A DNA stretch of 64,000 nucleotides from Parcubacteria group bacterium GW2011_GWD2_42_14 (GTDB lineage Bacteria > Patescibacteriota > Minisyncoccia > Phycocordibacterales > UBA12088), in contig LCCS01000007.1 of the NCBI GenBank assembly GCA_000998045.1, positions 5,220 to 69,219 on the forward strand, written 5' to 3'. The translations under genes and the position numbers were made by a program. How positions within the stretch are numbered: the first letter of the stretch is position 1; every line of letters begins with the position of its first letter. Positions 12,395 through 60,149 of this stretch are shown here, in pieces. Under the pieces are notes generated by a model. The model ran no database searches, was not told where the DNA came from, and saw only the letters and a program-made list of their open reading frames with translations.

Positions 12395-12811
12395 CAAAAT
12401 ACCAAAAGAGCCCCAACTCATGGGAACATCTAGGTCATATACATTATTGCACAAAAATGGCTTAAAATATCTAAAAAAGTCATATATAACGCCATATACT
12501 GTGGATAGCATTTACAATTTTAAACAAAACTCACCCCGCATTTTAGGCTCTGGGTAGAAAAGCCTCTACACGTTCGTACAATCGTTTGTAGTAGAAGTAT
12601 TTTTCGATCAGCTCTCCCCCCGTGCAATAAGAGTACCCGCACTCATGACTGATACCATAGTGTGTCCAGTTTACGTAGATCCACATGTATGCAAGTTTCG
12701 CAATAGAGTATCGCAAAAAGCAAGGGTACTTTTTCTCATAACCCATAGTCTTATCACCTTACCACACACCTTGGCGTCGACGTCGGTGTATACCTGTTGT
12801 GCCGAACATTT

Positions 12812-12986
12812 GGACCCACATAAGCGGATGCAGTTCGAGGCGCACAGGCAAAATACTGCGAGGCGTACAGCAGTACGATGAGTAGTATTTTGTGTAGTGC
12901 AACAAAGAAATGCGACCAATTTTTCTTATGAGCTTTGCGAATTAGAAAAATGAAGTACTCTTGTGGTGCGCCGTTTATGTGGGTCC
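12812..12986. repeat. Structured intergenic element, copy A (long form, ~175 nt). Outer inverted repeat GGACCCACATAAGCGG / CCGTTTATGTGGGTCC. Conserved core GGATGCAGTTCGAGGCGC...CAAAATACT...AGTATTTTGTG plus a ~55-nt AT-rich insert.
   Basis: Same core as the copies at 22774, 24337, 24557 and 56816. The outer stem differs from the other copies but stays complementary within the copy. It lies 5 nt after the stop of the cohesin-like gene at 12991. Confidence 0.6.
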
Positions 12987-12990
12987 AAAC

Positions 12991-14469
12991 CTACTTGAGG
13001 AGCTTGCGAACATCCTCCACCTCCTTATCAATAAGTTCTTCAGAAATATCCAATGCGTCTTTAAGTCCTTCGAGAATTGTTCTCTCCGTATCAGTCATGT
13101 TGGGTTTGTGCGATAGCTCAAGCACCTTCTCCTCAATTTCATCTCTAAGGACTCCAAAAATATTAATAAGTCTGTCTCCAACCTCAGCTGTTTCTCTTTT
13201 AATATGATCTTTTTCTTCATGAAAACGACGTCGCTCTTGAATTAACATCGTAATAACGATTGCAAGCGCACCCATAAAGAGAAGTGATACCCAATATATA
13301 GCCCCGAAGCCACTCTCCTTAATAGCATTTGGGTCCACCTCTTCAACCTTGGTTCCCGTTACAGTAACGGGGGCCTCGGCTGAGCGTTCATTGCCAGCGA
13401 AGTCGACAGCTGTAACACCTATCGTATGGTCTCCCGGATCCAAGTTGGTAATCGTATACCCGCCTGAGACTAGCTCGTTGGGCTGAACATCGCGTGGACT
13501 TTCTCCGTCTATCACAACACGATACAGTTCTACACCCGAAAGCGAGTCTTGTGCTTCAAATCGTATTTGTGCCGTTAAGTCTCCACCTACTGCAGTTACC
13601 CCAAACTCATCTGGTGGTGTGGTGTCAATTTGCAGTTTGTACGAAGTTGAACTTCCCCACCCTCCTCGATTTAAGTATTCCGCAGTGAAGTACCACGTAC
13701 CGTCCGTTATCCCCGTTTTACTCCATTCACCTACGGGCGGTTCATGTTTCTCAGTCGACGTCGCATCAGGAACATCTCCAAACGCAAACCGAACTCCAAG
13801 AACCCCATAGGGAATATCCCACGTGAATTTCGCATCTGATTTGTTATACCACACACCCTGTTCTGGATGCGTAGGACTTGAGATATCAGGAGCATCCGGT
13901 GGTGGGATTTTGGTATTTCTTTCTTGTGTAGGGGTGGTGGGCGGAGTAACTGGATCAGGTGGCTTGGCTGAAGCAGGGGTGACAGTAAATGTCGCTCCCG
14001 CAGAACCCGAAAGTACGTCCTGCCCTGCACCCGCAAGTAGGGTGGATTTTGTAAATTCAACTTTAGCAGAACCTTCTGCTTTTGCCTTAAAGGTAATGGT
14101 TGCGACTGCTTTTGAGCCAGAAATAGCCGTTGTACCACCTCCAGAAAACGTAATAGTCCCACCACTTATTTTTGGTTCAACTACCCAAAGATTAAAAGGT
14201 GAACCCTCTTTTGATACTGATACAGCGGTAAGCTTGCTCGTGTCGTAGGTAATAGTCGCTTCACCCGTGTTGACCGCATCAGTACCCGCATTGACCATGA
14301 CCTTTACAGCAAAAGTTTTACCAACCTCGAAACTGCCGTCTGCTGGTGAGAGTAGGTAGCTTGCAGCCAGAGAAACCTGTGGCACAGTGAGGCCGACAAG
14401 CGAACACATAAAAAACAGAAAGAAGAGTTTCTGTCTAAAATTTGGTAATGTGAAAAAAGCCTCGCTCAT
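12991..14469 (-). CDS. Membrane-anchored surface protein. Signal peptide, cohesin-like domain, Pro-rich linker, Ig/FN3-like domains, C-terminal TM helix and a charged coiled-coil tail.
   Basis: Likely start is MSEAFFTLPNFRQKLFFLFFMCSLVGLTVPQVSLAAS at 14469; the track ORF extends to 14529 and overlaps the Hsp20 gene. The segment VGKTFAVKVMVNAGTDAVNTGEATITYDTSKLTAVSV...ATITFKAKAEGSAKVEFT matches the cohesin fold pattern. It is followed by PPDPVTPPTTPTQ and a C-terminal TM (GFGAIYWVSLLFMGALAIVITML) plus a K/E-rich tail. Confidence 0.5.
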   Translation of the reverse strand: MSEAFFTLPNFRQKLFFLFFMCSLVGLTVPQVSLAASYLLSPADGSFEVGKTFAVKVMVNAGTDAVNTGEATITYDTSKLTAVSVSKEGSPFNLWVVEPKISGGTITFSGGGTTAISGSKAVATITFKAKAEGSAKVEFTKSTLLAGAGQDVLSGSAGATFTVTPASAKPPDPVTPPTTPTQERNTKIPPPDAPDISSPTHPEQGVWYNKSDAKFTWDIPYGVLGVRFAFGDVPDATSTEKHEPPVGEWSKTGITDGTWYFTAEYLNRGGWGSSTSYKLQIDTTPPDEFGVTAVGGDLTAQIRFEAQDSLSGVELYRVVIDGESPRDVQPNELVSGGYTITNLDPGDHTIGVTAVDFAGNERSAEAPVTVTGTKVEEVDPNAIKESGFGAIYWVSLLFMGALAIVITMLIQERRRFHEEKDHIKRETAEVGDRLINIFGVLRDEIEEKVLELSHKPNMTDTERTILEGLKDALDISEELIDKEVEDVRKLLK

Positions 14470-14494
14470 GCTCAATGTTTGCGAGCGAGGAATC

Positions 14495-14992
14495 TTATTG
14501 TAGACCCTGCGCTCCGTGATCGTCTGCACGTACTACATTCAAACGAAGTCCTTTCCCTTGCTTACCAATGAGTGGCAAACGTAGTGCCAATACGCCATCT
14601 TTTGTTTTTGCCTCTGCTCGTTCAGGATCTATCTCATCCGGAAGAATTATTTGTCTGTAAAAATCCCCCCAATGGCATTCCTCGAGAGTAAAATCACCAT
14701 TTTGTGAGGCGTGTGATTCGTGCATGAGCTGTTCTGGACGAAGGGCCGAACCTTGAATACTTACCACGTCGTTGTCTCCTGCAATAGAAACGTCCAAGGT
14801 CTGCATATCCATACCTGCAAGTTGTGCATAGATGACTATTTCTGTATCAGATTGAAACACATCGACAGGAAGCTGAAGTGCGTGACCAGGAAGTACTGGC
14901 TGTGAACTTTTAGCTGACGCTGAGGCATCTACAAGCTGGCCTTCTTTGTCAACAAGACCTTTCCCTTTTAGTTTATCCATAAAAGTACCCAT
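14495..14992 (-). CDS. Hsp20/alpha-crystallin family small heat-shock protein
   Basis: Alpha-crystallin domain VDVFQSDTEIVIYAQLAGMDMQTLDVSIAGDNDVVSIQGS ... GDFYRQIILPDEIDPERAEAKTKDGVLALRLP. Confidence 0.8.
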   Translation of the reverse strand: MGTFMDKLKGKGLVDKEGQLVDASASAKSSQPVLPGHALQLPVDVFQSDTEIVIYAQLAGMDMQTLDVSIAGDNDVVSIQGSALRPEQLMHESHASQNGDFTLEECHWGDFYRQIILPDEIDPERAEAKTKDGVLALRLPLIGKQGKGLRLNVVRADDHGAQGLQ

Positions 14993-15200: not shown

Positions 15201-15345
15201 AGCAAAGAAAAACATCGCACAGAACTTTTGTTTTTGAGTGAATATCGAGGCACCAAGGAGTCATGTTTACGAGTCGTATTATCTATACGATGAGAAAACT
15301 GACGACGCAGGTAACAAAGATATTCGCCAAAAACAGAAGTTCTGG

Positions 15346-17214
15346 TTAGCCTGTCCAGTAGAATAGAAGTATAGAAAAGTCCGGTAGCGAGACCGTTCCG
15401 TCTTTGTTTACATCCGCTTCAACACTTGCAGTGTTCCAGTTAAAAAGAAGTATAGAAAAGTCGATTAAGTTTACCGAATCGTCACAGTTTAAATCTCCTC
15501 GACTCAGACAATCATCATCAGCAACCGTAACACCTAACCCTATTGTTTTTCTGGCACTTTTATCGCTCTCCACAAGGCCGTTTGGCATTTTCCCTTGTGC
15601 GACAAACTCATAGGTCCCCTTAGGAAGTTTCAGAGTAGGTATAGTGATAGTCCATGCTCCACTTCCATCTGCGGTAGTTGTACTCACAATATCTGCTGTA
15701 GAAACCTCAGCAAGCTTTGGACGTAGCCATGTCGTAAGCACTGCTTGTGGTGCAGAGTATCCCGTTACAACGAGGGGTGTCCCAGGCGATATGGAAGCTT
15801 CAGCCACAGACACCGTTGGAGGCAACATAATGTTATTGAGAGAGTTAAGGGTGTTTGTTTGTAGCCATAGTGTGGTTGAGAAGGTAGCACTGCGTACACC
15901 TTTGCTGTCTACTGCATAAATGCCAAACGAGTACGATCCTCGATCAAGACCTTCTGTTTTGTCACTAAATTCTCCACCTCCTCCTGCTCCCTTCGTAGTT
16001 ATGGTGACACCGTCCCTGAGGAACGAAACGGTAGCCCCAGGGTACGCCCATCCTTCTATACTTACATCAGCTTGAGGAAGCTTGGTACCTGTACCATCGT
16101 CTCCACCCCCGCTCGAACTACCTCCACCACCATCTCCGCCAGCAGGGCTTGTACCACTCCCTGACCCCGTAGAACCGCCTCCTGTACCGACATCGTCTCC
16201 TGTCCCTGATCCACCCTGCACCGTTGTCGAAGAAACTCCCGTGCCCGTGCCCGTGCCCGTCGTCGTGGCTGTCGACGTCGCACTTCCTGGCATGAGACCT
16301 ATAGTAAACGAGAGTTCGTAATCCGGATCCATTTCGTTTTCTCGGAAGTCCACACATCGGAGAAAGTAGTCGTACGTCGTGTCGTCTTCAAGATTGCTCA
16401 CTTGTGCAAAATGCCACTTAACAAGTCCTGAGGAAGTGCCTGTGAAGGAATATGGCATCAGGTCATACGCCATACTTGAGGTTGCAAAACGACAGTAAGC
16501 AGCTTCATCGGTAGTTACAAACATTTCTACTGCTCGGGTACCAACCTGTAACAGTCCGGTAGGCACCGCCGACAAAATAACTGGGGGTATTTGGTCAGTC
16601 GTATCGACTGGTCCGGCTGTCACCTGATCAACTATAGCTATCATAGTGCGCCCATAGTCCAGCTCGACATCACTGGTATTGTATGTGTACACTGTCACGG
16701 GGTATGAGCTAGTCGCAGCACTTAACTGTGCTTGCACATCTCCAGTAGCACCATACTGAGCATTCGTGCCTATTTCTACCACTACTTCGTTATTAGCAGG
16801 TATGCCAAGGGAGGTATTTAGATCAAAACGTATCTTCCCTGCACTTCCACTCGTGACCGTCACATCATCAGTACCAGCTGTTTGTATGGAGGATAGTGGT
16901 CTCTCGGTGTACGGTCCCCCTGGAACTGCGGAGAAAGCTATATCGACGTCGGAAAAGTTCAGCGTTGCCGGCAATATAATTCCACCCTCATCAAAAACTA
17001 TTTCTATGGCGCCATTGGCAGGAACTGCTTGCGTCAGAGTAAATGTAATCTTTTGATTCGTGTACGCACTTGGGGCGCTGGTCGAGAGCAAGTCGCTAAT
17101 GCGCGTGAGGTAGCTCGTCGCATACACCCTAGAAACAAAAGTAAGTAGTACACATACAACAACCAATCCAAAAATACTTTTGTGAAATTGTGGTGTGATT
17201 TTAAAATGTTCCAT
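15346..17214 (-). CDS. Secreted surface protein with C-terminal dockerin domain (signal peptide, G/T/S-rich linker, Ig-like beta domains, tandem dockerin)
   Basis: The C-terminus DLNCDDSVNLIDFSILLFNW ... DVNKDGTVSLPDFSILLFYWTG shows two D-x-N-x-D-x-x-V-x-x-x-D-F calcium-binding segments typical of type-I dockerin. The N-terminal signal is MEHFKITPQFHKSIFGLVVVCVLLTFVSRVYA. There is a GTGTGTG/GGS low-complexity linker. Confidence 0.6.
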   Translation of the reverse strand: MEHFKITPQFHKSIFGLVVVCVLLTFVSRVYATSYLTRISDLLSTSAPSAYTNQKITFTLTQAVPANGAIEIVFDEGGIILPATLNFSDVDIAFSAVPGGPYTERPLSSIQTAGTDDVTVTSGSAGKIRFDLNTSLGIPANNEVVVEIGTNAQYGATGDVQAQLSAATSSYPVTVYTYNTSDVELDYGRTMIAIVDQVTAGPVDTTDQIPPVILSAVPTGLLQVGTRAVEMFVTTDEAAYCRFATSSMAYDLMPYSFTGTSSGLVKWHFAQVSNLEDDTTYDYFLRCVDFRENEMDPDYELSFTIGLMPGSATSTATTTGTGTGTGVSSTTVQGGSGTGDDVGTGGGSTGSGSGTSPAGGDGGGGSSSGGGDDGTGTKLPQADVSIEGWAYPGATVSFLRDGVTITTKGAGGGGEFSDKTEGLDRGSYSFGIYAVDSKGVRSATFSTTLWLQTNTLNSLNNIMLPPTVSVAEASISPGTPLVVTGYSAPQAVLTTWLRPKLAEVSTADIVSTTTADGSGAWTITIPTLKLPKGTYEFVAQGKMPNGLVESDKSARKTIGLGVTVADDDCLSRGDLNCDDSVNLIDFSILLFNWNTASVEADVNKDGTVSLPDFSILLFYWTG

Positions 17215-21276: not shown

Positions 21277-21345
21277 TTCGTCTTTGCGAGTCGAAACGAA
21301 GCAAACCATATATGGATCGCTTTGTTGCGACTCGCGATGACAATC
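21277..21345. repeat. Repeat copy 1: CGTCTTTGCGAGTCGAAACGAAGCAAACCA...GCGACTCGC (hairpin GCGAGTCG/CGACTCGC)
   Basis: Near-identical 30-mer plus inverted partner also at 25271-25335. Confidence 0.4.
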
Positions 21346-21418: not shown

Positions 21419-22690
21419 CTACTCTTCTTGTAGTTCTATAGTGCTTCCATCAGGACGAACCTCCGTCACACTGTAGTCACGCGTAACAGTCATCACATCC
21501 TCAAAGAAAAAGCTCAGCACAAAGCCACCAAACGCCACAACCACAACAGAAACAAAAAACAACCAGTACTTGTAAAGAAATGTACCGAAGGTGAGTACCT
21601 CTGTATGTTGCTGGTGATGTGACATGTACACAGCCTGCACATCAGGCTCTATCACTTCACGCGCAGGGGTACCTACACGTCTCAAATCTATCAACCCTGC
21701 TTTAATAGGCTGTACCAGTGTGCCTAGTTTAATACGAGGAACTTCAGTAGCTACATACTTACTCTGTGGTACATGCGCTGTCTGAAAGTCACCCTGCATC
21801 TGCAAATGTGCGGTTTCGAGAGCGAGTGCACGACGAATGTAGAGTCGTAGTACCCATCCCACAAAGAACACGAGTGCGAGTAAACCTCCAACAATCTGTA
21901 ATAACGGCACTACTGGCAGTACATAGAAGTATGTCGTCGCAAGTGCTGACTGCTTGGCGTCCTTACCATACCCTATCGTTGCTTCTGCTTTATATCTCCC
22001 TATATCCCACAAGCCCGTATCTGACTCCCATGTAAAGCTAAATTTGCGCACGCTGTTTGGAAGCACGTTTCCATAATCCTTTTGCTGGTTAATAGGAATC
22101 GTTCCTCGCACCTTTCCAAACATGTTGTAGATAACAATATTTCCCTGCGGTATGAGGTGTACATTTCCTTTGTTCTCAAACCGTAGTGAGAGTTTTGCTG
22201 TTGCAGTGTCATACACCATTTCTTCCGTAGCAAAATCTCGTATCTGTCCTTTCTCAATCACATCACCGGAAACGGAAAGAAAGATGAGTGAGGCTATGGA
22301 ACTGGTAACATTCACCGTGTTGCCTTCCACCCCTCTCCCCTCTGGAGATCTGTTTCCTATCAGGATAGCTGCATAATGTCCGCCTGGGGCGGCATCATTC
22401 GGAACAGTAATAGTAAGTGGGAGTTTGTACGTCTGCTCCCGCACAATAGAAAACGCTTCTTGAGGCACAGTAATCCATCCTGCTAGTGTAGAGCTCTCCT
22501 CACTTTCAGCAGTAGGAGTAATGAAGACAGGACTTCCACTTTCACCTGATGGGCGAAAAAGTACCGGGTCTGCAAATAAAGAGAGGTCGTACTGGTTGTT
22601 GTTCACGACCGTGATATATGAAGACCATGTCTCCCCCGGTTGCAGGTTTATCTGGAAGAGAGGCGGAGCAATCGTTAAACTCAAACCCAT
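21419..22690 (-). CDS. Cell-surface protein, paralog 2 of 3 (DufA/CscA-like architecture: beta domains, C-terminal TM anchor, basic tail)
   Basis: Start taken at ATG 22690 (MGLSLTIAPPLFQ…); an alternative TTG ~22741 would add CCVSIFSPTSLLFASE. The track ORF runs on to 22972 only because repeat element B is open in this frame. The C-terminal half is a large hydrophobic and repeat-like tail. Confidence 0.5.
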   Translation of the reverse strand: MGLSLTIAPPLFQINLQPGETWSSYITVVNNNQYDLSLFADPVLFRPSGESGSPVFITPTAESEESSTLAGWITVPQEAFSIVREQTYKLPLTITVPNDAAPGGHYAAILIGNRSPEGRGVEGNTVNVTSSIASLIFLSVSGDVIEKGQIRDFATEEMVYDTATAKLSLRFENKGNVHLIPQGNIVIYNMFGKVRGTIPINQQKDYGNVLPNSVRKFSFTWESDTGLWDIGRYKAEATIGYGKDAKQSALATTYFYVLPVVPLLQIVGGLLALVFFVGWVLRLYIRRALALETAHLQMQGDFQTAHVPQSKYVATEVPRIKLGTLVQPIKAGLIDLRRVGTPAREVIEPDVQAVYMSHHQQHTEVLTFGTFLYKYWLFFVSVVVVAFGGFVLSFFFEDVMTVTRDYSVTEVRPDGSTIELQEE

Positions 22691-22773
22691 CTCAGATGCA
22701 AAGAGAAGTGAGGTGGGACTGAAAATACTGACACAGCACAAAAAGACAGTGCAGGCACGACCGATATTGTACT

Positions 22774-22899
22774 TATAGGACTTATGCAAACGAGTGGAGT
22801 TCGAGGCGAGCAAACAAAATAATACGAGGCGTATAGATAGTACGGTGAGTATTATTTTGTGTAGCACAACGAAGAAATCCGCCGCTTGCGTATGTCCTA
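22774..22899. repeat. Structured intergenic element copy B (short form, ~125 nt). Outer inverted repeat ATAGGACTTATGCAAACG / CCGCTTGCGTATGTCCTAT.
   Basis: Core GGAGTTCGAGGCGAGCAAACAAAATAATACGAGGCGTA...GAGTATTATTTTGTGTAGCACAACGAAGAAATCCGCC. It lies between the stop of 22902..24218 and the start of 21419..22690. Confidence 0.6.
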
Positions 22900-22901
22900 T
22901 C

Positions 22902-24218
22902 TTACCTTCTCGAAGATAACTGAATAACATTTCCATGTGTTTTAGTATTCCCTTTTGTATCCCTTGGCGCAAGAGTCACTGTGGCACCATACGTATGTGC
23001 TTCATTTCTGCGAGATACCTGCTCTCGTGCCTGCCTTGCGTCCGTAAGGTGCAGATGGGTTACCGATGTATGTGTCTGTGGTATACGAGCAGATACTTGT
23101 GGTATTCGACTGGTTCGTCGGACATCACTACGCTCTACGAGGTCCTCATCTACACGTGCTTCCGCGCGCTTGCGAGCACGTGCTGGTTGCGCCATGGAGC
23201 TCATATGCACAATGTATGTACCTACTACGGCAAGTACGAGAACTCCCATCAAGGCTGCCGTAATCTCTTTCCATGGGAAGACCCAGAAGTACACCGTGTC
23301 TTGTACGCTTGCAAGCTGGTTTTCTCCATACTCAAGATCAAGGAACGCTTTATACTTTCCAAACCTGCCCACAGCACTCCATGACGCCGCAAGTTGTCTT
23401 TTATTTTCAGGATTTATTTCTTCACCGTCAGCGTTTAAAGGAATACTCCCCACCTCCTCTCCTTTGCGGTTAAAGATGCGTATTGAACCCCTTGGTTCAA
23501 GCAAACGGTTCCCCACGTTTTCAAGCAAATATGAAAAAGATACTGAGTTGCCAAGCACTACACTATCTTCACTTATAAAATTTCCCAACTGTAATCGCTC
23601 TATCGCATTGTCTTCCACCTCTACATTGAGCATGAGTGCGCTTCCTTCTATACCTGCTTCTGCTTCGGTGCGACGTGCCCCTTCACGAAACTGTAGTCGC
23701 GCGTAGTAGCTTCCGGGCTTTGCACTCAAGTTGACATGTATCAAGTACGGAATTTTTCGACTCTCTCGAGGGTCAAGATCTATCACTCCTCGGGTGATTT
23801 CTACCCAGTTTGCCAAAGACGTCGATAGGTCCGATGCTCCTGGCCCCACAAACTCTTTTGCACCTTCAGTGGGGTCGATATTTTCTACTGATATGTATAC
23901 ATCTACTCGCTTGTCAGTATTGTTGGTAACAATCACCTCTTTTTTGATAATGTCCCGTGGTTTTGCTTTTTCATTTGCTACTACTGGAGAAACAGAAAAC
24001 GTACTCAACCCCATACTCGTGTCTGGTATCGAGCCATCAACTTCTGCCTCTGCTTCTACTTCTACTTCTACTGGTACAGCATCCTCTATCTCACCTTGCG
24101 GAAGTGGTTCTTCTGCAAATACTAGTACTGTAGTAGTAATTAAGGTATACGCAAAAAAACAGGCCAACATACCGAAAAGAAAGGCCTGACGTACGGCTAC
24201 CTGAGTGTTTACCCCCAT
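22902..24218 (-). CDS. Cell-surface protein, paralog 3 of 3 (DufA/CscA-like architecture). Signal peptide, acidic EVEVEAEAEV stretch, two beta domains, TM anchor and Arg-rich tail.
   Basis: MGVNTQVAVRQAFLFGMLACFFAYTLITTTVLVFA signal; SAKPGSYYARLQF, GSIRIFNRKGEEVGSIPLN, and FWVFPWKEITAALMGVLVLAVVGTYIV TM followed by ARARKRAEAR. Confidence 0.55.
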   Translation of the reverse strand: MGVNTQVAVRQAFLFGMLACFFAYTLITTTVLVFAEEPLPQGEIEDAVPVEVEVEAEAEVDGSIPDTSMGLSTFSVSPVVANEKAKPRDIIKKEVIVTNNTDKRVDVYISVENIDPTEGAKEFVGPGASDLSTSLANWVEITRGVIDLDPRESRKIPYLIHVNLSAKPGSYYARLQFREGARRTEAEAGIEGSALMLNVEVEDNAIERLQLGNFISEDSVVLGNSVSFSYLLENVGNRLLEPRGSIRIFNRKGEEVGSIPLNADGEEINPENKRQLAASWSAVGRFGKYKAFLDLEYGENQLASVQDTVYFWVFPWKEITAALMGVLVLAVVGTYIVHMSSMAQPARARKRAEARVDEDLVERSDVRRTSRIPQVSARIPQTHTSVTHLHLTDARQAREQVSRRNEAHTYGATVTLAPRDTKGNTKTHGNVIQLSSRR

Positions 24219-24336
24219 AGGTATATTGTAGCGTATCTACGCAAAAAACTAGCATTTAAAGGTGTGTATAGAGTGGGCAAATTTGAAATTTGAAATGAAT
24301 CCCGTTAAAGATCCTGCCATTTATGTAAGTTCTGAA

Positions 24337-24547
24337 GGACTTACGTAAACGGATGCAGTTCGAGGCGCGCAAACAAAATACTACGAGCCGTACAGGCAGG
24401 TACGGTGAGGAGTATTTTGTGTAGCGCAACAAAGAAATGCGACCAATTTTTCTTATGAGCCTTGCAATTAGAAAAATGAAGTACTCTTGCCTGCCCCGTA
24501 CCCATTGCGAAGCTTTGTGGTACTGGGGTGGTGCGCCATTTATGTAA
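24337..24547. repeat. Structured intergenic element copy C (long form with two inserts), in tandem with copy D
   Basis: GGACTTACGTAAACGG-ATGCAGTTCGAGGCGCGCAAACAAAATACTACGAGCCGTA...GAGTATTTTGTGTAGCGCAACAAAGAAATGCGACCAATTTTTCTTATGAGCCTTGCAATTAGAAAAATGAAGTACTCTTG...GTGCGCCATTTATGTAA. Confidence 0.6.
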
Positions 24548-24556
24548 TTTCTGAAA

Positions 24557-24678
24557 GGACTTACATAAATGGATGCAGTTCGAGGCGCCCAAACAAAATG
24601 GAACGAGTTGTATGAACAATACTACGAGAGACATTTTGTGTAGGACAACGATGAAATGCGCCGTTTCCGTAAGTCCTA
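24557..24678. repeat. Structured intergenic element copy D (short form). Outer inverted repeat GGACTTACATAAATGG / CCGTTTCCGTAAGTCCT. Its 3' end overlaps the TAG stop of gene 24676..25230.
   Basis: Core ATGCAGTTCGAGGCGCCCAAACAAAATGGAACGAG...GACATTTTGTGTAGGACAACGATGAAATGCGCCG. Confidence 0.6.
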
Positions 24679-25230
24679 CACGAAATAATGAAATAAGATG
24701 ACAGTAGCTACCGGCAAAAACAAGTTATCTGATCCTCGCAATGATACCACTTCAACAGCAGTGAGAACGACTGCCATATATAATGCTTGTACGTACTGTA
24801 CGTCAAAAAATACGAGGACACAGAAAGATGCTACGAGACAGGCAAAGGAACCTTCAAAGGAACGTTTTTCATCATATATATGATACGTGTGGGTACCGAA
24901 ACGTATACCTGCGAGCGCTGCAAATGTATCAGCAAGCGCTAATAATAGCATCGCAGTCTGGAAAAGAGGCACATTTTCGGGCAAAGCTACGTATGCGGTC
25001 ACCACTACCCCTACTACAAAGAACAGTTCACCGAAAGAAACTCGTTCGACATTGTGCACAGCAGTATGCAGACGAGCAAACCGTATAAACATAAATACAC
25101 CCAAAAGCACGAGTGCAATGAAGATAAGTACCTCTACACGCACAAGAGTAGCAAGAACAGCAAATGCCATTGCAAGCACTGCGTGCAATCCTTTTCGGAT
25201 AAATTCTTTATGTATATGCATATTTTCCAT
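24676..25230 (-). CDS. Polytopic membrane protein, possibly cytidylyltransferase/dolichol-kinase-like (LALADTFAALAGIRFG motif)
   Basis: At least 5 hydrophobic helices; D-x-x-A-A-x-x-G motif typical of the CTP-transferase family. Functional assignment is weak. Confidence 0.45.
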   Translation of the reverse strand: MENMHIHKEFIRKGLHAVLAMAFAVLATLVRVEVLIFIALVLLGVFMFIRFARLHTAVHNVERVSFGELFFVVGVVVTAYVALPENVPLFQTAMLLLALADTFAALAGIRFGTHTYHIYDEKRSFEGSFACLVASFCVLVFFDVQYVQALYMAVVLTAVEVVSLRGSDNLFLPVATVILFHYFV

Positions 25231-25270: not shown

Positions 25271-25335
25271 ATCGTCTTTGCGAGTCGCAACGAAGCAAAC
25301 CAGGTCTTGTTTACAGGTGCGACTCGGTTAGTTAG
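25271..25335. repeat. Repeat copy 2 of the CGTCTTTGCGAGTCG(C)AACGAAGCAAACCA...GCGACTCGG element
   Basis: Matches 21277-21345. Confidence 0.4.
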
Positions 25336-25719: not shown

Positions 25720-28650
25720 TTAGAATTTTTTTGTCTCTATAACTTGTCCTTCTGGGGCGTTTGGATGCAGTTTTTTAAGCATGGCTTCGTGTTGTTCCAA
25801 CTGTAGCATTACATCTTTCGGTTTCATACCATCATAGGCACTCCAGTCAATGGAAAACTTGGCAAGTGGTGTATCGCTAGCACCTTTAAGTGCTACTGCG
25901 ATGTCAGTTAACTGCGCATGGACCATGTCCCTAAAGGTGTGGTTGTTTTCGGAGTTAAAAAATTGATGTGCGGTGAGCGAACGCCATTCAGGCTCTTCTG
26001 TAGGATACTTAATCTCTACCAGCTTTGTTATTTCAGGTGTAACTTCAATAGGCGGAAGTTTTGCAACGGCTCTCGTGCCATATACAGGATCTGTATTCCA
26101 CCCCACTTTTGGTGCCTCATACTTAGCGAGAGGTATTCGCTCAACTTCTGGAAGAGTGGTTTTACTTTCAGGAACTGCCGTATCTGGTTTACTTTCAGGT
26201 ACTGCCGTATTTTTAGGAACGGTAACTGGCTCTGGTATTGGTTCAGCTGTTGGTAGATTGTCTGGAGGGGTAGCAAGTTTAGGTCTGAAAGGTTCTACTT
26301 CTTCCAAACGCAAATGAAGTTTGTTGATAAGCTCTCCAAGCGTATCGTTATTTTTTACACTTTGTTCAATAATATCAGCAACATTTGGTATCTTCGGTTG
26401 TAGGGAATGCTCAAGCTTGTCCACAAGATTATATGTTAAAGCTTCAACCCCCGCACCCATCGTTACAGGGGGCTTATTATCAATGGTATACGTCAATGAT
26501 TTGCTTTTATCAAAAATATCCTCCATACGCACATGACTCATTGGTCCCCAGTAACTCATAATCAAGCTCCTTTGACCTTGAAGGACGGAACCTTGAAAGT
26601 ACCCCTCTTTGAATAAATCTGCTAATGCCGGTCGTGTAGCTGCACCATGGTAGTCAGGACCAATTTGCTCTTTAGCATGGGCTAGATCTTCCTTAATAGT
26701 CATCGGTGGTGCTTCTTTCGTAGGTTCAGGGACATCTTTAACCTCCGGTTTGGTAGCGTCTTCCAGTGGAAGAGATACTGGTGGTTTTTCTACAGGAGGA
26801 GTAACCTCAACCGGAACACTTTTGTGTCCGTGAATTTTTTCGATTTCAGTACTGAGCAAATCTTTATCAAGTGTAGCCTCATAAACGCCATTTACTTTTA
26901 CCTTATGCCAATCTTCGCCCTTGATATTGAAATCCCTCATCATATTAGGATCCTTTTCAATTTCTTGCTGAATCAAGTGGGCTATTTTACCCCGTTCAAC
27001 ATCAGTGAGATTTGGGTAGGTCTTCTTCACCCATGTATCGTTCTCAAGAAAATCTTGCAGTTCACCCTCTACACTTGAGCCTGCCTCATAGACACCTTTG
27101 AGCGTAACGCCTTTTTCAGAAATTATTTTAGATACGTCTGGGGTTGGTTCTAAAGGTGCCTCATTGAGATTTTTTGGTATTTCATAAGGTGGAACATCTT
27201 TCAGAGGTGGGGTTTGTGTATCTGTAGAAGCTTCTTCTCCAATACCAAGTTTTTGAAGTAGCTCTGCGATATCAGGCTTAGCTGAATATGCGTCCACCGC
27301 AGACTTTGGAATGACAAGTGACGCCTCTTCTGCAGAGGAGTACTTTTTTATTTCATCTTCAGGAAGAGTAGCAATGTCACCAGACTCGGGCTCTGGAACC
27401 TTAATGTCTACACCGCCGAAGTGAACGTCCTCTTGAGAACCTTCTGGTACTTTGATATCTACACCACCGAAGTGAACGTCCTCTTGAGAACCTTCTGGTA
27501 CTTTGATATCTACACCACCAAAGTGTATGTCTTTTTCAGAGAAAGTCGCAACATCCCCAGACTCAGGCATGTGCGTATCTACAGTTCCTGGTTTAGGTAT
27601 TTTTCCTTCTATAGGCTCTGGGGATTTTTCTTTGAAATCTTGAGGAATTCCAGATGATGAAGAATTCCCAAATACCGCTTCATACGCTTCTCCTCCCGCA
27701 ATTGATCCCACCCCACCAGCTGCCATTGCAGCTCCGACAGCAGCAACTGAAGACACCTTCTTTTTTAAGCGAACATCTCTCTGAATCGCTCGACGGTCTT
27801 CTCGGCTCTGACGAAGTGACGTTTCTTTAAATGATTCGTGCTGTTTTTTTAAAGCGCGTTCACCAAACTCTTCAGACTTTTTATCCCCATATCGTTTTGT
27901 CTCCAAAGCCGCAAAACCACCAAAAAACGTCCCAAATCCTTTACGTGCAGCCATGGCTCCCCCTGTAGCAAGTGCCCCTGCTGTAGCCCAACCTAATGCA
28001 CCCGCCCCCAAACCTGCAAGACCTGCCAGGCCGGCTCCATACAATGCCCGTTTTTTTAATGGAAGCTTTCTATACCACAACAAGAAAGCCTTCGATCCTC
28101 GAACAAGCTTATACCGCGATTCACCTTTTTCGTTTTCTTGGTAGCGTAGTCCCTCAAGCAGTTGTACCTCGTTGTCTATGTGGTGCTCGAGCATAGTCTC
28201 GTGACGCGCAACATACTCTGTAAGCGCATCATCTTTACTTTTTTTGGAAAGTTGCTCTTTTACAAAGTATTCCATTCGCTCTTGTCGATGTCCACGCAAC
28301 CCCTCAAGTAAGTTGTCGTAGGTATACTGTGCCTGAAGCATTTCTTGTTTTGCATTATCAAGTTCAGGTGTTGCGATAAACCGACGGAGCATTCCGGCAC
28401 CTCTTCGCTCTTCCTCATATTTTTTACTCGCTTCAAGGAATACTGCTTCTGCGTCTTTGACCTGAGCTCGATACGCTTTATAGTTTTCGCGAATTTCTTT
28501 CCACGCTTCATCTCTATTCCTCACTCTCTTGCAAACCTTCCGTGGTTGCACCACTCGCACTTGTTTCTTCAAACTCGGGGCTTGCACTGTCCTGTCGTTC
28601 AGGCTCTTCCAGCCCTTCGGGAAGTGTAAGGTCTGTTTCTGTACTTTCAT
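25720..28650 (-). CDS. Large coiled-coil / glycine-zipper membrane protein with a 3x tandem 17-aa repeat (hypothetical)
   Basis: 976-aa ORF. Gly-zipper segments LYGAGLAGLAGLGAGALGWATAGALATGGAMAA and AAVGAAMAAGGVGSIAGG. Repeats DVHFGGVDIKVPEGSQE. Start uncertain: ATG 28650 overlaps the upstream gene by 137 nt, with an alternative in-frame GTG near 28520. Confidence 0.55.
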   Translation of the reverse strand: MKVQKQTLHFPKGWKSLNDRTVQAPSLKKQVRVVQPRKVCKRVRNRDEAWKEIRENYKAYRAQVKDAEAVFLEASKKYEEERRGAGMLRRFIATPELDNAKQEMLQAQYTYDNLLEGLRGHRQERMEYFVKEQLSKKSKDDALTEYVARHETMLEHHIDNEVQLLEGLRYQENEKGESRYKLVRGSKAFLLWYRKLPLKKRALYGAGLAGLAGLGAGALGWATAGALATGGAMAARKGFGTFFGGFAALETKRYGDKKSEEFGERALKKQHESFKETSLRQSREDRRAIQRDVRLKKKVSSVAAVGAAMAAGGVGSIAGGEAYEAVFGNSSSSGIPQDFKEKSPEPIEGKIPKPGTVDTHMPESGDVATFSEKDIHFGGVDIKVPEGSQEDVHFGGVDIKVPEGSQEDVHFGGVDIKVPEPESGDIATLPEDEIKKYSSAEEASLVIPKSAVDAYSAKPDIAELLQKLGIGEEASTDTQTPPLKDVPPYEIPKNLNEAPLEPTPDVSKIISEKGVTLKGVYEAGSSVEGELQDFLENDTWVKKTYPNLTDVERGKIAHLIQQEIEKDPNMMRDFNIKGEDWHKVKVNGVYEATLDKDLLSTEIEKIHGHKSVPVEVTPPVEKPPVSLPLEDATKPEVKDVPEPTKEAPPMTIKEDLAHAKEQIGPDYHGAATRPALADLFKEGYFQGSVLQGQRSLIMSYWGPMSHVRMEDIFDKSKSLTYTIDNKPPVTMGAGVEALTYNLVDKLEHSLQPKIPNVADIIEQSVKNNDTLGELINKLHLRLEEVEPFRPKLATPPDNLPTAEPIPEPVTVPKNTAVPESKPDTAVPESKTTLPEVERIPLAKYEAPKVGWNTDPVYGTRAVAKLPPIEVTPEITKLVEIKYPTEEPEWRSLTAHQFFNSENNHTFRDMVHAQLTDIAVALKGASDTPLAKFSIDWSAYDGMKPKDVMLQLEQHEAMLKKLHPNAPEGQVIETKKF
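27400..27555 (-). repeat. 51-bp coding tandem repeat, ~3 copies (CACCGCCGAAGTGAACGTCCTCTTGAGAACCTTCTGGTACTTTGATATCTA)
   Basis: Direct read; encodes DVHFGGVDIKVPEGSQE x3 inside gene 25720..28650. Confidence 0.6.
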
Positions 28651-29221: not shown

Positions 29222-29270
29222 GTATTAACTCAGAACTCGTCACTCGTCACTCGCTTTACTCTTATTTAGA
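29222..29270. repeat. ACTCG-repeat cluster (GAACTCGTCACTCGTCACTCGCTTTACTC) just 3' of the giant gene stop. Preceded by an ACTAGTA-repeat/near-palindrome ACTAGTATACATACTAGT (~29185-29215).
   Basis: Shares the ACTCGCTTTACTC core with 15141-15200 (reverse complement) and 63497-63523. Confidence 0.35.
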
Positions 29271-43755: not shown

Positions 43756-43873
43756 CCCGTTAGAGACAGGTCACGAAGTGACCGTCGGTTAGTCTAATAA
43801 ATATCATGTATATTCTGTTTTTCCTTTCAGTACACATTACTCTGTTTATTACATATGTATCGTCTCTACGGGA
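43756..43873 (-). repeat. ~118-bp MITE-like / conserved 5'-leader element copy 1. 12-bp terminal inverted repeat TCCCGTTAGAGA...TCTCTACGGGA, internal palindrome GGTCACGAAGTGACC. The left end abuts the mscL ATG.
   Basis: The conserved block CATCCCGTTAGAGACAGGTCACGAAGTGACCGTCGGTTA is shared with 51127-51165 and 52474-52512. AT-rich interior with TATCATATTCT / CTTTCAG.ACATTAC similar to copy 2. Confidence 0.55.
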
Positions 43874-47159: not shown

Positions 47160-48626
47160 ATGGGACAATGCGTCACAATTAAAAATGCAACCGCATTTAT
47201 CCTGCTTGGCGCAACAGGTGATTTGGCTCAAAAGAAACTTTTACCGGCTCTTATTGATTTATTTGAGAAAGGCGTCCTTCCAAAACGTTTTTACATACTC
47301 GCTTTCTCAAGAAGTTCTCTTGATACGGCAGGATATCGAGAATTCGTAAGAAAACATATAGAAGCAAAAGGCAAGCAGTACACACAAAAAAGTATTGAGG
47401 ATTTTCTAAGTATTATTGAATACACACAAGGAAATTTTGATGAACCTGCAGCATTTGAGCGCACAAAAAAAATTCTAGAAGCCTACGATGAACGTATAGG
47501 CACCTGCTCAAGCAAACTTTTTTATCTCGCAGTCCCTCCACAGTTTTATGATGCTATTTTTGAACAGTTAGCCAACGTTAAACTGGAGCAACCGTGTATG
47601 GTTGGAGATGGATGGACACGCATCTTGGTTGAAAAGCCTTTCGGTAGCAACCTCGAAAACGCCCAGCACCTTGATGAAAAACTGAGTAAACTTTTTCACG
47701 AGGAACAAATTTATCGTATTGACCACTATCTTGCTAAAAGCGCACTCCAAAATATCATTGCATTCCGTTTTTCAAATGTGCTCTTTGAGGATAAGTGGAA
47801 CAATGAAAACATAGAGTCTGTTTACATTACCCTTTATGAAACCATCGACGTCACTACCCGAGGAGCTTTTTTTGACAAAGTTGGTGCACTCAGAGATATG
47901 GGACAAAATCACATTCTTCAAATGCTCACCCTCATAGCCATGGATCATCCCGAAAAACTTGAAGCTTCTAATCTGCGCCAAAAACGTGCAGAGATTTTAG
48001 AGGCGTTGCGCATACCAACACACCGTGAGAGTTTGACCGATATTGTGAAGGGACAATACGAAGGGTATCAATACGTGAAAGATGTAGAAAAAGGCTCAAA
48101 AACTGAAACATACTTTTTGGTGAAAGCGTTCCTTGATACCCCACGATGGCAAGGAGTTCCCTTCTATTTAGAACACGGCAAATCATTATCAAAAAGTGAA
48201 ACGGCAATAACGGTACGATTTCGCTCTGCAAAAAACTGTGTTTGTAACGAGGGAGAAAAACATAACCATCAAAATATTGTTCGCTTCACCATCTCACCAG
48301 AACAAAAAATTTCTGTGCAATTCTGGGTTCGCAAGCAGGGCCTTAAGTACGAACTACAACCAAGAGAATTACTCTTTGACCGTACAACGACACCTCCAGA
48401 AGATCGAAAACTTATTTCAGACCCGTATGAAGAAGTACTTTTTGATGCACTCTGTGGCGACCAAACCTTGTTTGTGAGCAACAAAGAGCAACATGCAGCG
48501 TGGAAATACATCACTGCCATACTTGAGTTATGGGAGGACGTTGTACCACTTTCTTACGCTTCTGGAAGTTTCGGACCAGAATCAAAACTTAAAAAAGAGA
48601 TTGAGGAATCATTATTGTTACAGTAA
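47160..48626 (+). CDS. zwf: Glucose-6-phosphate 1-dehydrogenase
   Basis: ILLGATGDLAQKKLLPAL NADP-binding motif and active-site RIDHYLAK. Confidence 0.85.
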   Translation: MGQCVTIKNATAFILLGATGDLAQKKLLPALIDLFEKGVLPKRFYILAFSRSSLDTAGYREFVRKHIEAKGKQYTQKSIEDFLSIIEYTQGNFDEPAAFERTKKILEAYDERIGTCSSKLFYLAVPPQFYDAIFEQLANVKLEQPCMVGDGWTRILVEKPFGSNLENAQHLDEKLSKLFHEEQIYRIDHYLAKSALQNIIAFRFSNVLFEDKWNNENIESVYITLYETIDVTTRGAFFDKVGALRDMGQNHILQMLTLIAMDHPEKLEASNLRQKRAEILEALRIPTHRESLTDIVKGQYEGYQYVKDVEKGSKTETYFLVKAFLDTPRWQGVPFYLEHGKSLSKSETAITVRFRSAKNCVCNEGEKHNHQNIVRFTISPEQKISVQFWVRKQGLKYELQPRELLFDRTTTPPEDRKLISDPYEEVLFDALCGDQTLFVSNKEQHAAWKYITAILELWEDVVPLSYASGSFGPESKLKKEIEESLLLQ

Positions 48627-48640
48627 TATAAGATGGCACT

Positions 48641-49561
48641 ATGAACATTGCATACATAGGACTCGGCAAAATGGGACGAAATATGGTAGAACGACTTATT
48701 AGTCGAGGGCATACCGTCACTGCGTATGACAGTAATCCTGAAGCACGAGTAGTAGCAGAAAAATTGGGTGCAACCGTAGTGAATACCTTAGATGCACTTA
48801 TAGAAAACACCCCTGCACCTAGGACCGTATGGCTCATGGTGCCTCATCATGTCGTTGAAACGGTGCTTGAAGAATTAAAGCTACACCTTGAAAAAGGCGA
48901 TACTATTATTGAAGGCGGTAACTCACCATTTAGAGAGACGATACGTCGTCACAAAGAGTTTGAAGCTATGGGTATTGCTTTTTTAGACGCGGGAGTAAGT
49001 GGCGGACCTGGTGGTGCAAAAGATGGCGCATGTATCATGGTAGGTGGAAAACAAGAGCACTACAATAACTACGAATCTCTTTTTAAAGATCTTGCAGTCC
49101 GTAATGGCTACGCCTACATTGGAAGTACCGGTTCAGGACATTTTGTAAAAATGGTACACAACGGTATCGAGTACGGAATGATGCAAGCACTTGCGGAAGG
49201 TTTTGATATGTTACAGCAAGCCCACTTTGAAAAGCCGCTTCCACTTACTGCGATTGCAAATCTTTACAACCATGGCAGTGTCATAGAATCACGTCTTGTG
49301 GGGTGGCTCTTGAAAGGATTTGAGATGTACGGAGAAGACTTGGAAGCGATTACCGGAAGTGCACAAGCAAGCGGAGAGGGTCTCTGGACTGTCGAGACAG
49401 CGAAAGATATGAGAATTCCGGTTGACGTCATTGAAGGAGCACTTACCGCCCGAACAAAAAGTTGTACAAATCCAAATTATCAGGGTCAACTTATCTCGGT
49501 TATGCGTAACCAGTTTGGAGGACACGAGTGTACCCTGCCAGAAGATAAAAAACAATCATAA
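48641..49561 (+). CDS. gnd: 6-phosphogluconate dehydrogenase (short ~300-aa form), NAD(P)-binding
   Basis: IAYIGLGKMGRNMVERL Rossmann motif, and the position between zwf and pgl. Confidence 0.7.
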   Translation: MNIAYIGLGKMGRNMVERLISRGHTVTAYDSNPEARVVAEKLGATVVNTLDALIENTPAPRTVWLMVPHHVVETVLEELKLHLEKGDTIIEGGNSPFRETIRRHKEFEAMGIAFLDAGVSGGPGGAKDGACIMVGGKQEHYNNYESLFKDLAVRNGYAYIGSTGSGHFVKMVHNGIEYGMMQALAEGFDMLQQAHFEKPLPLTAIANLYNHGSVIESRLVGWLLKGFEMYGEDLEAITGSAQASGEGLWTVETAKDMRIPVDVIEGALTARTKSCTNPNYQGQLISVMRNQFGGHECTLPEDKKQS

Positions 49562-56571: not shown

Positions 56572-56815
56572 CCTTTGTTAATTTTCCTTATTTCTAGAAC
56601 GTACCCATCCTGTCTGTATTATATCACTATATATAGCATTATGTCAATGCATTTTGGGTAAAATACCCATATATGTAGAGCTAAATTATGAAGTGTAAAG
56701 TCAAAAGTAGTAAGCTCATATAATACAAGTTTTTGTTTTTTGCTCACGGCTCTCGGCTCAAGGCTAATACCCCGCCATAGCGAGACAAGCTTTCAACTTT
56801 CAAGTCTTTGTATAA

Positions 56816-56937
56816 AGGACCTACGCAAGCGGATGCAGTTCGAGGCGCGCAAACAAAATACTACGAGGCGTATTAGGTATACGATGAGGAGTATTTTGTG
56901 CAGCGCAACGATGAAATGCGCCGTTTGCGTAGGACCT
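56816..56937. repeat. Structured intergenic element copy E (short form). Outer inverted repeat AGGACCTACGCAAGCGG / CCGTTTGCGTAGGACCT. Its 3' arm overlaps the TAG stop of the ABC-F gene.
   Basis: Core ATGCAGTTCGAGGCGCGCAAACAAAATACTACGAGGCGTATTAGGTATACGATGAGGAGTATTTTGTGCAGCGCAACGATGAAATGCGCCG; inner stem ACAAAATACT/AGTATTTTGT. Confidence 0.6.
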
Positions 56938-58414
56938 ATTTCTTTTTTTTATCGAGGTCGATAGTATCGTCGATACGAATTTGCGCCACAAACTCAGGGA
57001 CGTGAGACACAAGGAGCATAGCCCCTTCATACGAGTCGAGTGCCTTTGCTATCACAGGAATATGTCGGAAGTTGATATGATTGGTTGGCTCATCAAGAAT
57101 AATAAGTCCGGGTTTAAGCAAAACGAGTCGAGCAAACGCCACCAATCCTTTTTGCCCTTCAGAGAGAAGTCCAATCTTCGTGTTAATGATATCACTCGTT
57201 ATTAAAAACCCCGCTGCTGTTGCGCGCATGTCTTCTTGGAATTTTTCCTCCATTACCGACATAAGACAATCATAGACGGTCTGATCAAAATCGAGGTTTG
57301 AAAAATCTTGTCGGTAGTACCCTATCTTTACACCCTGCGCCACCATTTCCCCCTTTGCATGTCCTTTGGCAAGCGACTCGAGAAGTGTCGTTTTCCCTAT
57401 ACCGTTCGGTCCTACGATTTGAAAGTGTTGCCCCCTTTTCAAGACTACATCACATTTGACCTCTTTAGGAGTGTGGTCGCGAATAACGGTATACGACGTA
57501 AGCCGTAAAATCTCTGAGGGTATGTCCTGTTGGACCGGTATTGTAAATCGTCGAATCGCTCGGTCTTCTTTTCGCACCTCTACCTTGTTCTCCTCATGTT
57601 CTTCCACTTTCTCTCGCATCCGTTTGGCAACGAGACGCATCCCCCCACCTTTATGTGCAAAGAAGTTTGCTTTATCTTTGTTTGCCTGAATCTCCTTTTC
57701 CAATTGCGCATTCTTCCTTTTTTCTTTGAGTACGCGAGCAGCTATTTCCTCGACAACGTCATGATAATCGCCTTCGTACCGTTCGATGGTGTGCATTTGT
57801 TCATTCAAGTACAACACGCCGTGAGTAAAAGCATTCAAAAAGTCGGCATCGTGTGAAATGACAATCACGGTCTTTGTGTATGTCTTCAAAAACTCAGTGA
57901 GATGTTCTATCCCAGCGCTGTCTAGGTTGTTGGTTGGTTCATCGAGCAATAGCACATCTGGATTTTGGATAAGCGCGGAAGCCAATAGGAGACGTGCTTG
58001 TTGTCCTCCGGAAAAACTCCCAACTATTCTATCTTTGAACGAGTCACGTACTTTAGGATTCTTGGGTAAAAGATTCACTACCTCAAGTATCTCGTCAATT
58101 TTTGGATCAATGTTGTACACTTTTTCAGGAAAGCATGCTTCAAAAAATTCTCGCACTGAGAGGAGAAGCTCGTCTCGTGGTATCACTTGCCGTGAGATCG
58201 CAATACTGGTATGTGGCATAACATTTACCTTTCCTTCATCGGGCTTATATAGCCCTCCTATTAGGCCAAAGAGCGTGCTCTTACCTGCACCGTTTTGCCC
58301 CATGAGAGTAAGCTTCGCTCCACGTCGAATAGAAAAACTTGTCTCAACAAGAATTGGTTTATGCACACTATGTTCGAATGACACGGTGTCAAACGATATA
58401 AGTCCTCGAGGCAC
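56936..58414 (-). CDS. ABC-F family ATPase (two ABC domains, no TMD), EttA/Uup-like
   Basis: Domain 1: MGQNGAGKSTLF, LSGGQQARL, LLLDEPTNNLD. Domain 2: IVGPNGIGKTTLL, LSEGQKGLVAFARL, IILDEPTNHI. GTG start at 58414. Confidence 0.8.
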   Translation of the reverse strand: MPRGLISFDTVSFEHSVHKPILVETSFSIRRGAKLTLMGQNGAGKSTLFGLIGGLYKPDEGKVNVMPHTSIAISRQVIPRDELLLSVREFFEACFPEKVYNIDPKIDEILEVVNLLPKNPKVRDSFKDRIVGSFSGGQQARLLLASALIQNPDVLLLDEPTNNLDSAGIEHLTEFLKTYTKTVIVISHDADFLNAFTHGVLYLNEQMHTIERYEGDYHDVVEEIAARVLKEKRKNAQLEKEIQANKDKANFFAHKGGGMRLVAKRMREKVEEHEENKVEVRKEDRAIRRFTIPVQQDIPSEILRLTSYTVIRDHTPKEVKCDVVLKRGQHFQIVGPNGIGKTTLLESLAKGHAKGEMVAQGVKIGYYRQDFSNLDFDQTVYDCLMSVMEEKFQEDMRATAAGFLITSDIINTKIGLLSEGQKGLVAFARLVLLKPGLIILDEPTNHINFRHIPVIAKALDSYEGAMLLVSHVPEFVAQIRIDDTIDLDKKKK

Positions 58415-59783: not shown

Positions 59784-60149
59784 ATATATACAACCTTAAA
59801 CACTGGGTAAGTAATGCGACTGTAAAACTTCTACAGGATTTTATTTTAAGACTTAAGCAAATGGATGTAGTTCTAGGAAAACAAACAAAATGGAGTAAGC
59901 TGTACTCGTTGTACAGTGAACGACATTTTGTGCCACTATGCTTTTTTGTCTTTCTTTGGTTTCTTTTTCTCTTTTCGCGCGTCTTTTCCTTTAGCCATAC
60001 TTGTTATTACATTACTGGTACACGTATATTCTACATTCTACCTCACATCACCAGTGAAGAACTAGTGGAGAATATCTCCTCAGTGTTCATTCTCGCCCTC
60101 GTCTGCAACTCTTACTCGAAACTTCATACTTCTTTGCTACAGTCAAAGC

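Follow-up and report, generated by a model that had tools for sequence, protein, structure and literature searches.

A hairpin-forming repeat family at gene ends in Parcubacteria, probably a MITE-type non-autonomous mobile element

The 64-kb stretch of DNA analysed here (hereafter the window) carries seven copies and one end-fragment of a non-coding repeat, all in one orientation (+ strand), which we consider to be, with good probability, a non-autonomous mobile element of the MITE type whose family is found in related Parcubacteria (Paceibacteria-type CPR bacteria). Three independent lines of observation, namely the duplication of target sites, empty orthologous sites and the comparison of the ABC-F locus among relatives, show the element to be mobile. 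The family is new, but it belongs to an already known type of element and does not represent a novel sort of RNA gene. It is distinguished by its host group and its habit of occupying stop codons, and by the conflict between its 5-bp duplication and its structure-type conservation.

CPR bacteria, whose genomes are very small, are believed to harbour few mobile elements. Full-text literature searches returned no description of MITEs or REP-like repeats in these bacteria. Insertions of the element constitute a strain-level marker, as they differ between genomes whose ABC-F proteins share 94% amino-acid identity; they likely cause breaks in assemblies, and they offer a natural experiment on the effect of a long hairpin at the stop codon on gene expression. 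Moreover, two puzzles raised by the family, a strand-specific fold that is kept while the copies decay and variable ends surrounding a fixed interior, could lead to an unrecognised transposase or mechanism.

Copies of the element in the window

The following copies were recognised in the window with a repeat scan and with R1, a covariance model built from 14 short copies.

12810..12988, + strand: copy A, long form (R1 match)
15219..15346, + strand: diverged full copy (R1, 69.4 bits; DNA fold of −26.4 kcal/mol, z −5.7)
22776..22899, + strand: copy B, short form of 124 nt (R1 match)
24317..24334, + strand: solitary right-end fragment CCATTTATGTAAGTTCTG, read from the sequence and equal to the right end of copy C (24536-24553)
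24335..24553, + strand: copy C, long form, in tandem with copy D (R1 match)
24555..24678, + strand: copy D, short form, subfamily with GGAACGAGTTGTATGAACAATAC apex (R1 match)
56815..56938, + strand: copy E, short form (R1 match)
59847..59932, + strand: truncated copy, AGTTCTAGGAAAAC subfamily (R1, 49 bits)

The original prediction listed five copies sharing a core and an orientation. All five (A to E) are present on the + strand with this core, their limits being refined here, and the common orientation holds for all seven copies; the count of five was too low, as it missed the diverged copy at 15219-15346, the truncated copy at 59847-59932 and the fragment at 24317-24334. The core 18-mer is matched four times in the window, against 0.01 in shuffled sequences. 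Located directly before copy C, the fragment is the remnant of a third tandem copy. The long form, predicted to carry an AT-rich hairpin insert, is likewise real: copy A, the termini of which are degenerate (TT…AA), contains a 53-nt AT-rich hairpin (module X) at 12918-12970, the same module occurs with a further insert at 24442-24535 in copy C, and module X with covarying stems is also present in other genomes. The diverged copy at 15219-15346 displays a terminal stem CAGAACTTTTGTTTTTG / CAAAAACAGAAGTTCTG and retains the internal motifs TCGAGGC, AACAAAGA and ACGAG…GATGAG. The truncated copy, located among + strand genes, comprises the left arm and the apical hairpin without the right arm, and its sequence recurs in locus L099.

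The predicted relationship with gene ends was recovered for copies A, B, D and E and for the copy at 15219, whose GTCC(TA) end lies within 5 nt of a minus-strand stop codon or supplies it. The right end of copy A is 2 nt from the stop codon (12991-12993) of a cohesin-domain gene (12991..14529, −), and the stop codon of a dockerin-domain gene (15346..17214, −) abuts the right end of the diverged copy. Copy B is flanked by ACTTA (22771-22775) and TCTTA (22900-22904), a target-site duplication with one mismatch, and the right flanking 5-mer contains the stop codon of the gene 22902..24218 (−). In the two remaining cases the terminal CTA of the element is itself the TAG stop codon of the gene, which is 24676..25230 (−) for copy D (CTA at 24676-24678) and the ABC-F ATPase gene 56936..58414 (−) for copy E (CTA at 56936-56938).

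Architecture, fold and covariation

The basic unit is 124 nt long, reads TAGGAC…GTCCTA and is an imperfect palindrome along its entire length. Its fold comprises a terminal stem of 17 bp, three internal helices and an apical hairpin, the internal helices being set apart by conserved asymmetric loops in which AGTTC.AGG lies opposite CAAC..GAAAT. The fold also contains a conserved box, CGAG/[CT]GAG, which would correspond to a tandem G·A motif; the stability of 5'-GA/5'-GA mismatches is established. Length variants range from 81 to 276 nt (mode 124), always within a single pair of ends. Some bear module X on the right arm; in others an X-like module is present in mirrored form on the left arm, or a module Z follows CAGTTCGA, and further variants include a nested 110-nt palindrome (one copy) and an 81-nt mini form devoid of the core. 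The element is non-coding; a coding role of module X, considered on account of an SD-like GGAG and an ATG, was rejected because its reading frame shifts between copies through a 1-nt indel.

The RNA folds of three copies have energies between −42 and −60 kcal/mol and z-scores between −6 and −10. Covariation was assessed on an alignment of 52 distinct short copies, with 500 shuffles and slid partners as controls. Standard pairs are formed in 96% of the cells, vs 90% in the shuffles and 32-43% with slid partners, changes on both sides are seen in 24 of the 43 pairs, and not one of the 500 shuffles matches any of the five covariation measures. The 17-bp ends (TAGGACTTACGCAAACG / CGTTTGCGTAAGTCCTA) are 92% paired over the 52 copies. 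The covariation check proposed with the original prediction thus places the stems, outer ones included, far above both shuffled and slid controls, and the claim that the outer stems differ between copies yet remain complementary is borne out by double changes in 10 of the 17 pairs of the terminal stem (helix 1). At the level of the family, the hairpin is maintained by compensatory changes.

Evidence for mobility

Of 108 flank-distinct copies, 15 have the same 5-mer on either side just beyond TA…TA (0.5 expected), and in 9 the two 5-mers show one mismatch (3.6 expected). The excess of direct repeats is gone when the boundary is moved by 1 or 2 nt. Since it falls solely outside TA…TA, the TA is part of the element, and we rejected on this ground the reading of TA as the target duplication. 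The sequences that are duplicated are AT-rich, with A as the final base in 16 of 18.

Empty orthologous sites, with the flanks joined, were identified by comparing L044 with L056 (ACTCA) and L067 with L039 (AAACA), and further ones by comparing L112 with L103 and L082 with L008. The window itself contains one:

48626..48634, no strand assigned: empty site in the spacer between the G6PD (47160..48626, +) and 6PGD (48641..49561, +) genes

A 154-nt copy is present in the orthologous spacer of GW2011_GWA2_43_11 (L123:235-388). The situation is reversed at the ABC-F locus. Its synteny (ABC-F / GGDEF / PIN-PhoH) is kept in four relatives, and the element is found in the window alone. In three of these relatives, the ABC-F orthologues (94%, 91% and 86% amino-acid identity) end with a TAA stop codon without element, and read …AAGAAATAAG… or a close variant, where the window reads …AAGAAATAG followed directly by GTCC…. 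It follows from this comparison that the insertion sits on the stop codon, and that the frame is closed by the element's own TAG. The closest relative (97%) has a short sequence at this site, which may be a remnant. The window and GW2011_GWA2_43_11, the ABC-F proteins of which are 94% identical in amino acids, are therefore reciprocal, the ABC-F 3' end being occupied in the former and the G6PD/6PGD spacer in the latter.

A different relationship is observed at the site of copy B, where GW2011_GWA2_43_11 (L053:7659-7869 / L107:1449-1659) carries a copy of 211 nt that belongs to another subfamily and includes modules Z and X. This copy and copy B share the same 5-bp flank and the same unusual CGAGTG in the left arm, which suggests that the interior was replaced by conversion between copies.

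The covarying outer stems had initially been taken as an argument against a transposon. This argument is not supported in view of the 5-bp duplications, the empty orthologous sites and the neutral pattern of private mutations described below.

Distribution and copy number

A search of the window and 90 loci with R1 retrieved about 122 locations, representing about 100 distinct copies. An exact-pattern scan, with one genome per species, gave matches in CPR genomes only: GW2011_GWA2_43_11, two Kaiserbacteria, one Azambacteria and two records labelled Saccharibacteria. A spread to Saccharibacteria, based on the labels of the latter two (L002, CAYWWH01, and L004, CAZRNH01), was not retained: TypA of L004 shares 86% identity with an Azambacteria protein and its named top matches are without exception Parcubacteria. 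The label or the binning of these records is doubtful. Using an independent right-arm pattern, a scan of metagenomes revealed at least 115 loci, mostly from groundwater and aquifer samples. Some genomes are rich in copies, with seven in the 64-kb window and at least 24 end-bounded ones in the approximately 150 kb of GW2011_GWA2_43_11 examined, vs a single pattern match in a 649-kb contig of another metagenome; copy number therefore appears to vary between genomes.

No match to Rfam 15 was obtained in the window at gathering thresholds, and at permissive thresholds the best sub-threshold match was IMPDH RNA (15.7 bits for a threshold of 95.4); the known RNA family that was named at the outset as a possible refutation was thus not encountered. 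Blastn searches against 5,426 E. coli genomes (28 Gb) and against plasmids and phages gave no match, nor did IMG/VR yield any when scanned for the core pattern and for the end pattern.

Probable assignment to MITEs and search for a transposase

Four of the five features by which MITEs are defined were found: the element is short (below the limit of about 300 bp) and non-coding, has terminal inverted repeats, is accompanied by a duplication of fixed length and shows presence/absence differences between genomes. Copies are inserted with a 5-bp duplication of an AT-rich target usually ending in A, and according to this assignment a transposase supplied in trans would cut with a 5-bp stagger. Transposase families that leave 5-bp duplications include those of the Tn7/Mu/Tn402 type, the IS2 group of the IS3 family, IS21, IS1634 and IS1202. 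Insertion at a stop codon would be tolerated as the upstream frame stays closed and the downstream promoter remains intact. A folded single strand, of DNA or RNA, would matter for the propagation or the persistence of the lineage and, after insertion, individual copies would decay neutrally.

Some characteristics of the family fit less easily. Diverged subfamilies vary their terminal stems and bases and keep their internal motifs, and this combination of variable ends and fixed interior is the reverse of what is predicted for a DDE transposase binding conserved ends. Double-stranded cut-and-paste transposition has no use for a strand bias of the fold or for the conserved GA/GA motif. Nor does the MITE assignment account for the orientation bias at stop codons.

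No autonomous copy was found, either in the 0.9 Mb examined, where the ends of a pair are never separated by more than 340 nt, or in IMG/VR; likewise, no transposase was found among the 40 window ORFs scanned against Pfam. Two genes adjacent to copies in other genomes were considered as partners and rejected. The first, an IS4-like transposase beside a copy in L046, is bordered by unrelated ends (CACTAGTGTCCGATAAACATTC) and a 10-bp duplication (ACATCGCTAC). This IS4-like element (L046:~2551-3840), 22 nt from the copy, is absent from the otherwise identical L033, indicating that a second transposon is active in these genomes. The second, on LCFC01000047 (L001:275-1303, −), truncates a copy at its apical loop; we take it to be IS110-like from its N-terminus (MKTNHIGIDLHK…), assigned by eye. 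The other half of the truncated copy was not found downstream of this gene. The interruption of the copy at its apical loop resembles the behaviour of those IS110/IS1111 elements that target REP or attC hairpins.

Strand preference and possible recognition of a folded strand

The + strand, as oriented in the window, folds better than its complement in 51 of the 52 copies (mean of −55.1 vs −46.5 kcal/mol) and displays 141 G:U cells vs 18 A:C cells. This excess consists of states common to subfamilies, at about nine positions, and A:C occurs at intermediate frequency at no position. Conversely, low-frequency, private variants comprise 26 G:U and 28 A:C, an equality expected of inserted copies that decay neutrally. 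One strand is thus favoured at the level of the family, as shown by the G:U pairs and the conserved GA/GA motif, and we read this as selection acting on the multiplying lineages, the inserted copies decaying neutrally. A mutation bias is an unlikely source of the G:U excess, as the + strand has a C>G skew and the excess resides in shared and not in private states. Most neighbouring genes are in antisense orientation to the better-folding strand, which in the window is also the one with the C>G skew. The favoured strand is explained neither by the transcript of the adjacent gene nor by the IS608 rule.

These properties bear on another reading, in which the mobile element is recognised as a folded single strand, as are REP/REPIN with RAYT, derivatives of IS200/IS605 and attC sites, a protein reading the shape of the hairpin and a few unpaired or G·A bases and not the terminal sequence. 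We regard it as unlikely, and it is kept alive mainly by the variation of the terminal stems around constant internal motifs. Both the fold and these motifs are indeed kept, with different yet complementary terminal stems, in the window copy at 15219-15346 and in L045:1463-1589, L038:896-1023, L028, L047, L051 and L045:6394; AGTTC.AGG, CAAC..GAAAT and CGAG…[GT]GAG persist in such subfamilies. The covariation extending along the full length, ends included, and the preference for one strand described above also favour this reading. Exact direct repeats of 5 bp accompany two of the copies whose ends diverge (ATTCT at L045:6394 and CTATA in L047), a weak indication with 2 cases for 0.5 expected; the automatic search for duplications at the hairpin bases of divergent copies is unreliable, having recovered only three of the known canonical cases.

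On the other hand, target sites are not duplicated by the HUH (Y1) transposases known so far or by integron integrases, and the 5-bp duplication is clear here. The arms are not palindromes themselves, so that the unit is not a REP doublet, the GTAG head is absent and so are the attC core sites, the right end reading GTTTGCG and not GTTRRRY. Moreover, the copies are scattered and do not form an array beside an integrase, and in the window the favoured strand, by its C>G skew, is the template of the leading strand, contrary to the IS608 rule. It is doubtful that the family depends on a machinery which reads a folded single strand and yet integrates with a 5-bp staggered cut. Such a machinery would read stems that covary freely even at the ends, together with fixed internal motifs and the G·A tandem of one strand. 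If real, this combination would fit neither DDE transposons, with their conserved double-stranded ends, nor HUH or tyrosine systems, which leave no duplication, and would point to an undescribed transposition route in CPR bacteria, possibly via an RNA or single-stranded DNA intermediate.

Position at gene ends

Over all copies, stop codons of ORFs of at least 230 amino acids were counted within 12 nt of the ends of the element, with 23 cases at the right arm and 3 at the left arm. This asymmetry is not explained by the terminal stop codon of the element because both ends read TAG inward. Many insertions are exactly at the stop codon, which the terminal TAG of the element can replace. A strict rule of antisense orientation relative to genes was weakened when long ORFs only were considered, 73 of the long flanking ORFs being antisense and 47 sense to the element.

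The copies do not have the build of an intrinsic terminator. On the mRNA side, the hairpin is followed by A-rich sequence and not by a U-tract, the left flank being T-rich on the + strand, no site was flagged at the copies by a terminator scan, and a T-run is present at copy E alone, on the + strand. In addition, two copies are located within an atp operon in antisense orientation, so that termination cannot be obligatory in this orientation. A perfect sigma-70-type promoter (TTGACA, 18 nt, TG-TATAAT) precedes the GGDEF gene at 56647-56618 (−) of the window and is conserved in the orthologous spacers of relatives. As it lies between copy E and the next gene, the insertion of copy E leaves the promoter of the downstream gene untouched.

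A host-functional structured RNA at gene 3' ends, whether an mRNA stabiliser, a terminator, an RNase target or a small antisense RNA, would be kept by selection, its mobility being incidental or ancient. Such a function could account for the position at stop codons or within 5 nt of them with a fixed arm toward the gene, for the strong conserved fold with its compensatory changes, and for the retention of copy B (22776-22899) at the orthologous site of L053/L107 despite flanks at 74-89% identity. Nevertheless, the same gene ends lack the element in close relatives and vice versa, and private mutations show no preference for changes that keep the structure. The strand transcribed with the adjacent gene is the one that folds worse, and it offers no U-tract on the mRNA side of the hairpin. 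Together with the two copies inside the atp operon and the 39% of long flanking ORFs in the other orientation, these observations make a host RNA improbable.

A segmental duplication of the element together with neighbouring genes, the copies being identical by descent within the genome, is very hard to sustain: copies B and C/D do flank tandem paralogues (21419..22972 and 22902..24218) and one pair could have been co-duplicated, but the other copies lie in unrelated surroundings, each insertion can be accompanied by a 5-bp duplication of its own and the family adjoins unrelated genes in many genomes. Such descent, which had been put forward as a possible refutation of a conserved hairpin family, is itself refuted family-wide by the spread of the copies, their own duplications and the empty sites.

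Comparison with known repeat families

As a MITE-type element, the family can be compared with the ERIC/IRU sequences of enterobacteria and the Correia elements of Neisseria, which are long-hairpin MITEs located in transcribed spacers. Like them, it is a non-coding, multi-copy unit of about 100-150 bp whose halves pair into a long imperfect hairpin, it occupies spacers near gene ends, its insertions differ between strains and its size variants result from internal indels. It differs from ERIC/IRU by the lack of any sequence similarity, blastn being blank in the 5,426 E. coli genomes, and from Correia elements, which duplicate TA, by a 5-bp duplication of variable sequence, TA belonging here to the element. 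Unlike both, it resides in a CPR host with a very small genome and its terminal stems vary between subfamilies.

The original prediction had included a REP/BOX-like family among its options. This designation is the closest of those listed, but the defining features of REP/REPIN are lacking. BOX of Streptococcus pneumoniae and BIMEs of E. coli are mosaic repeats, and the element shares with them a modular construction, with a core and optional hairpin modules in varying number, on either arm and in mirrored forms. In contrast to BOX and BIMEs, its modules are contained inside one pair of terminal inverted repeats and the unit carries a target-site duplication; the comparison with BOX concerns the description of their build and not their sequence. 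The likeness to REP/REPIN resides in a hairpin of about 100 nt that multiplies, in a structure conserved over sequence and in a location just after stop codons. REP are palindromes of 20-40 nt with a GTAG head and do not produce target-site duplications, whereas the arms of the element are not self-complementary, a single hairpin spans the unit and 5 bp are duplicated. No match to Y1_Tnp (RAYT) was found among the 40 window ORFs scanned.

With the attC sites of integrons, the element has in common its location at gene 3' ends, a fixed orientation, a single-strand fold and covarying stems with few conserved bases. Its ends, however, are CGCAAAC / GTTTGCG and not RYYYAAC / GTTRRRY, and a target duplication is present; unlike attC, it does not form arrays, copies being 1.5-32 kb apart beside ABC-F, the atp operon or G6PD. 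No integrase was found in the window. Finally, derivatives of IS200/IS605 have separate subterminal hairpins, no terminal inverted repeats and no duplication, whereas the ends of the element pair with each other and a duplication is present.

Other features of the window

Two giant ORFs are present on the minus strand. The first (1-12511) exceeds 4170 amino acids, continues beyond the left edge of the window and accounts for its initial 12.5 kb, which had seemed devoid of ORFs; the second (29266-39267) encodes 3333 amino acids and contains internal 300-nt repeats (36435-36734 vs 38217-38516) that are 81% identical. The cohesin- and dockerin-domain genes 12991..14529 and 15346..17214 are located near giant ORFs. 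Three 51-nt tandem repeats (27392-27544) lie inside a 976-aa ORF (25720..28650, −) that has no Pfam match.

A leader of about 44 nt, including the start codon, is common to three unrelated minus-strand genes (43749-43823, 51123-51197 and 52470-52544), which encode MscL, a RimK-like ATP-grasp protein and a SpoU methylase. Within this leader, a GGTCAC-N4-GTGACC hairpin closely precedes ATGAAAA; the leader may represent a second small repeat family or a common translation signal.

A 31-nt repeat, 97% identical between its two occurrences, is located inside small spacer hairpins at 21278-21308 and 25272-25302. At the site orthologous to the latter, GW2011_GWA2_43_11 (L053:5618-5698) has instead an 81-nt mini copy of the element.
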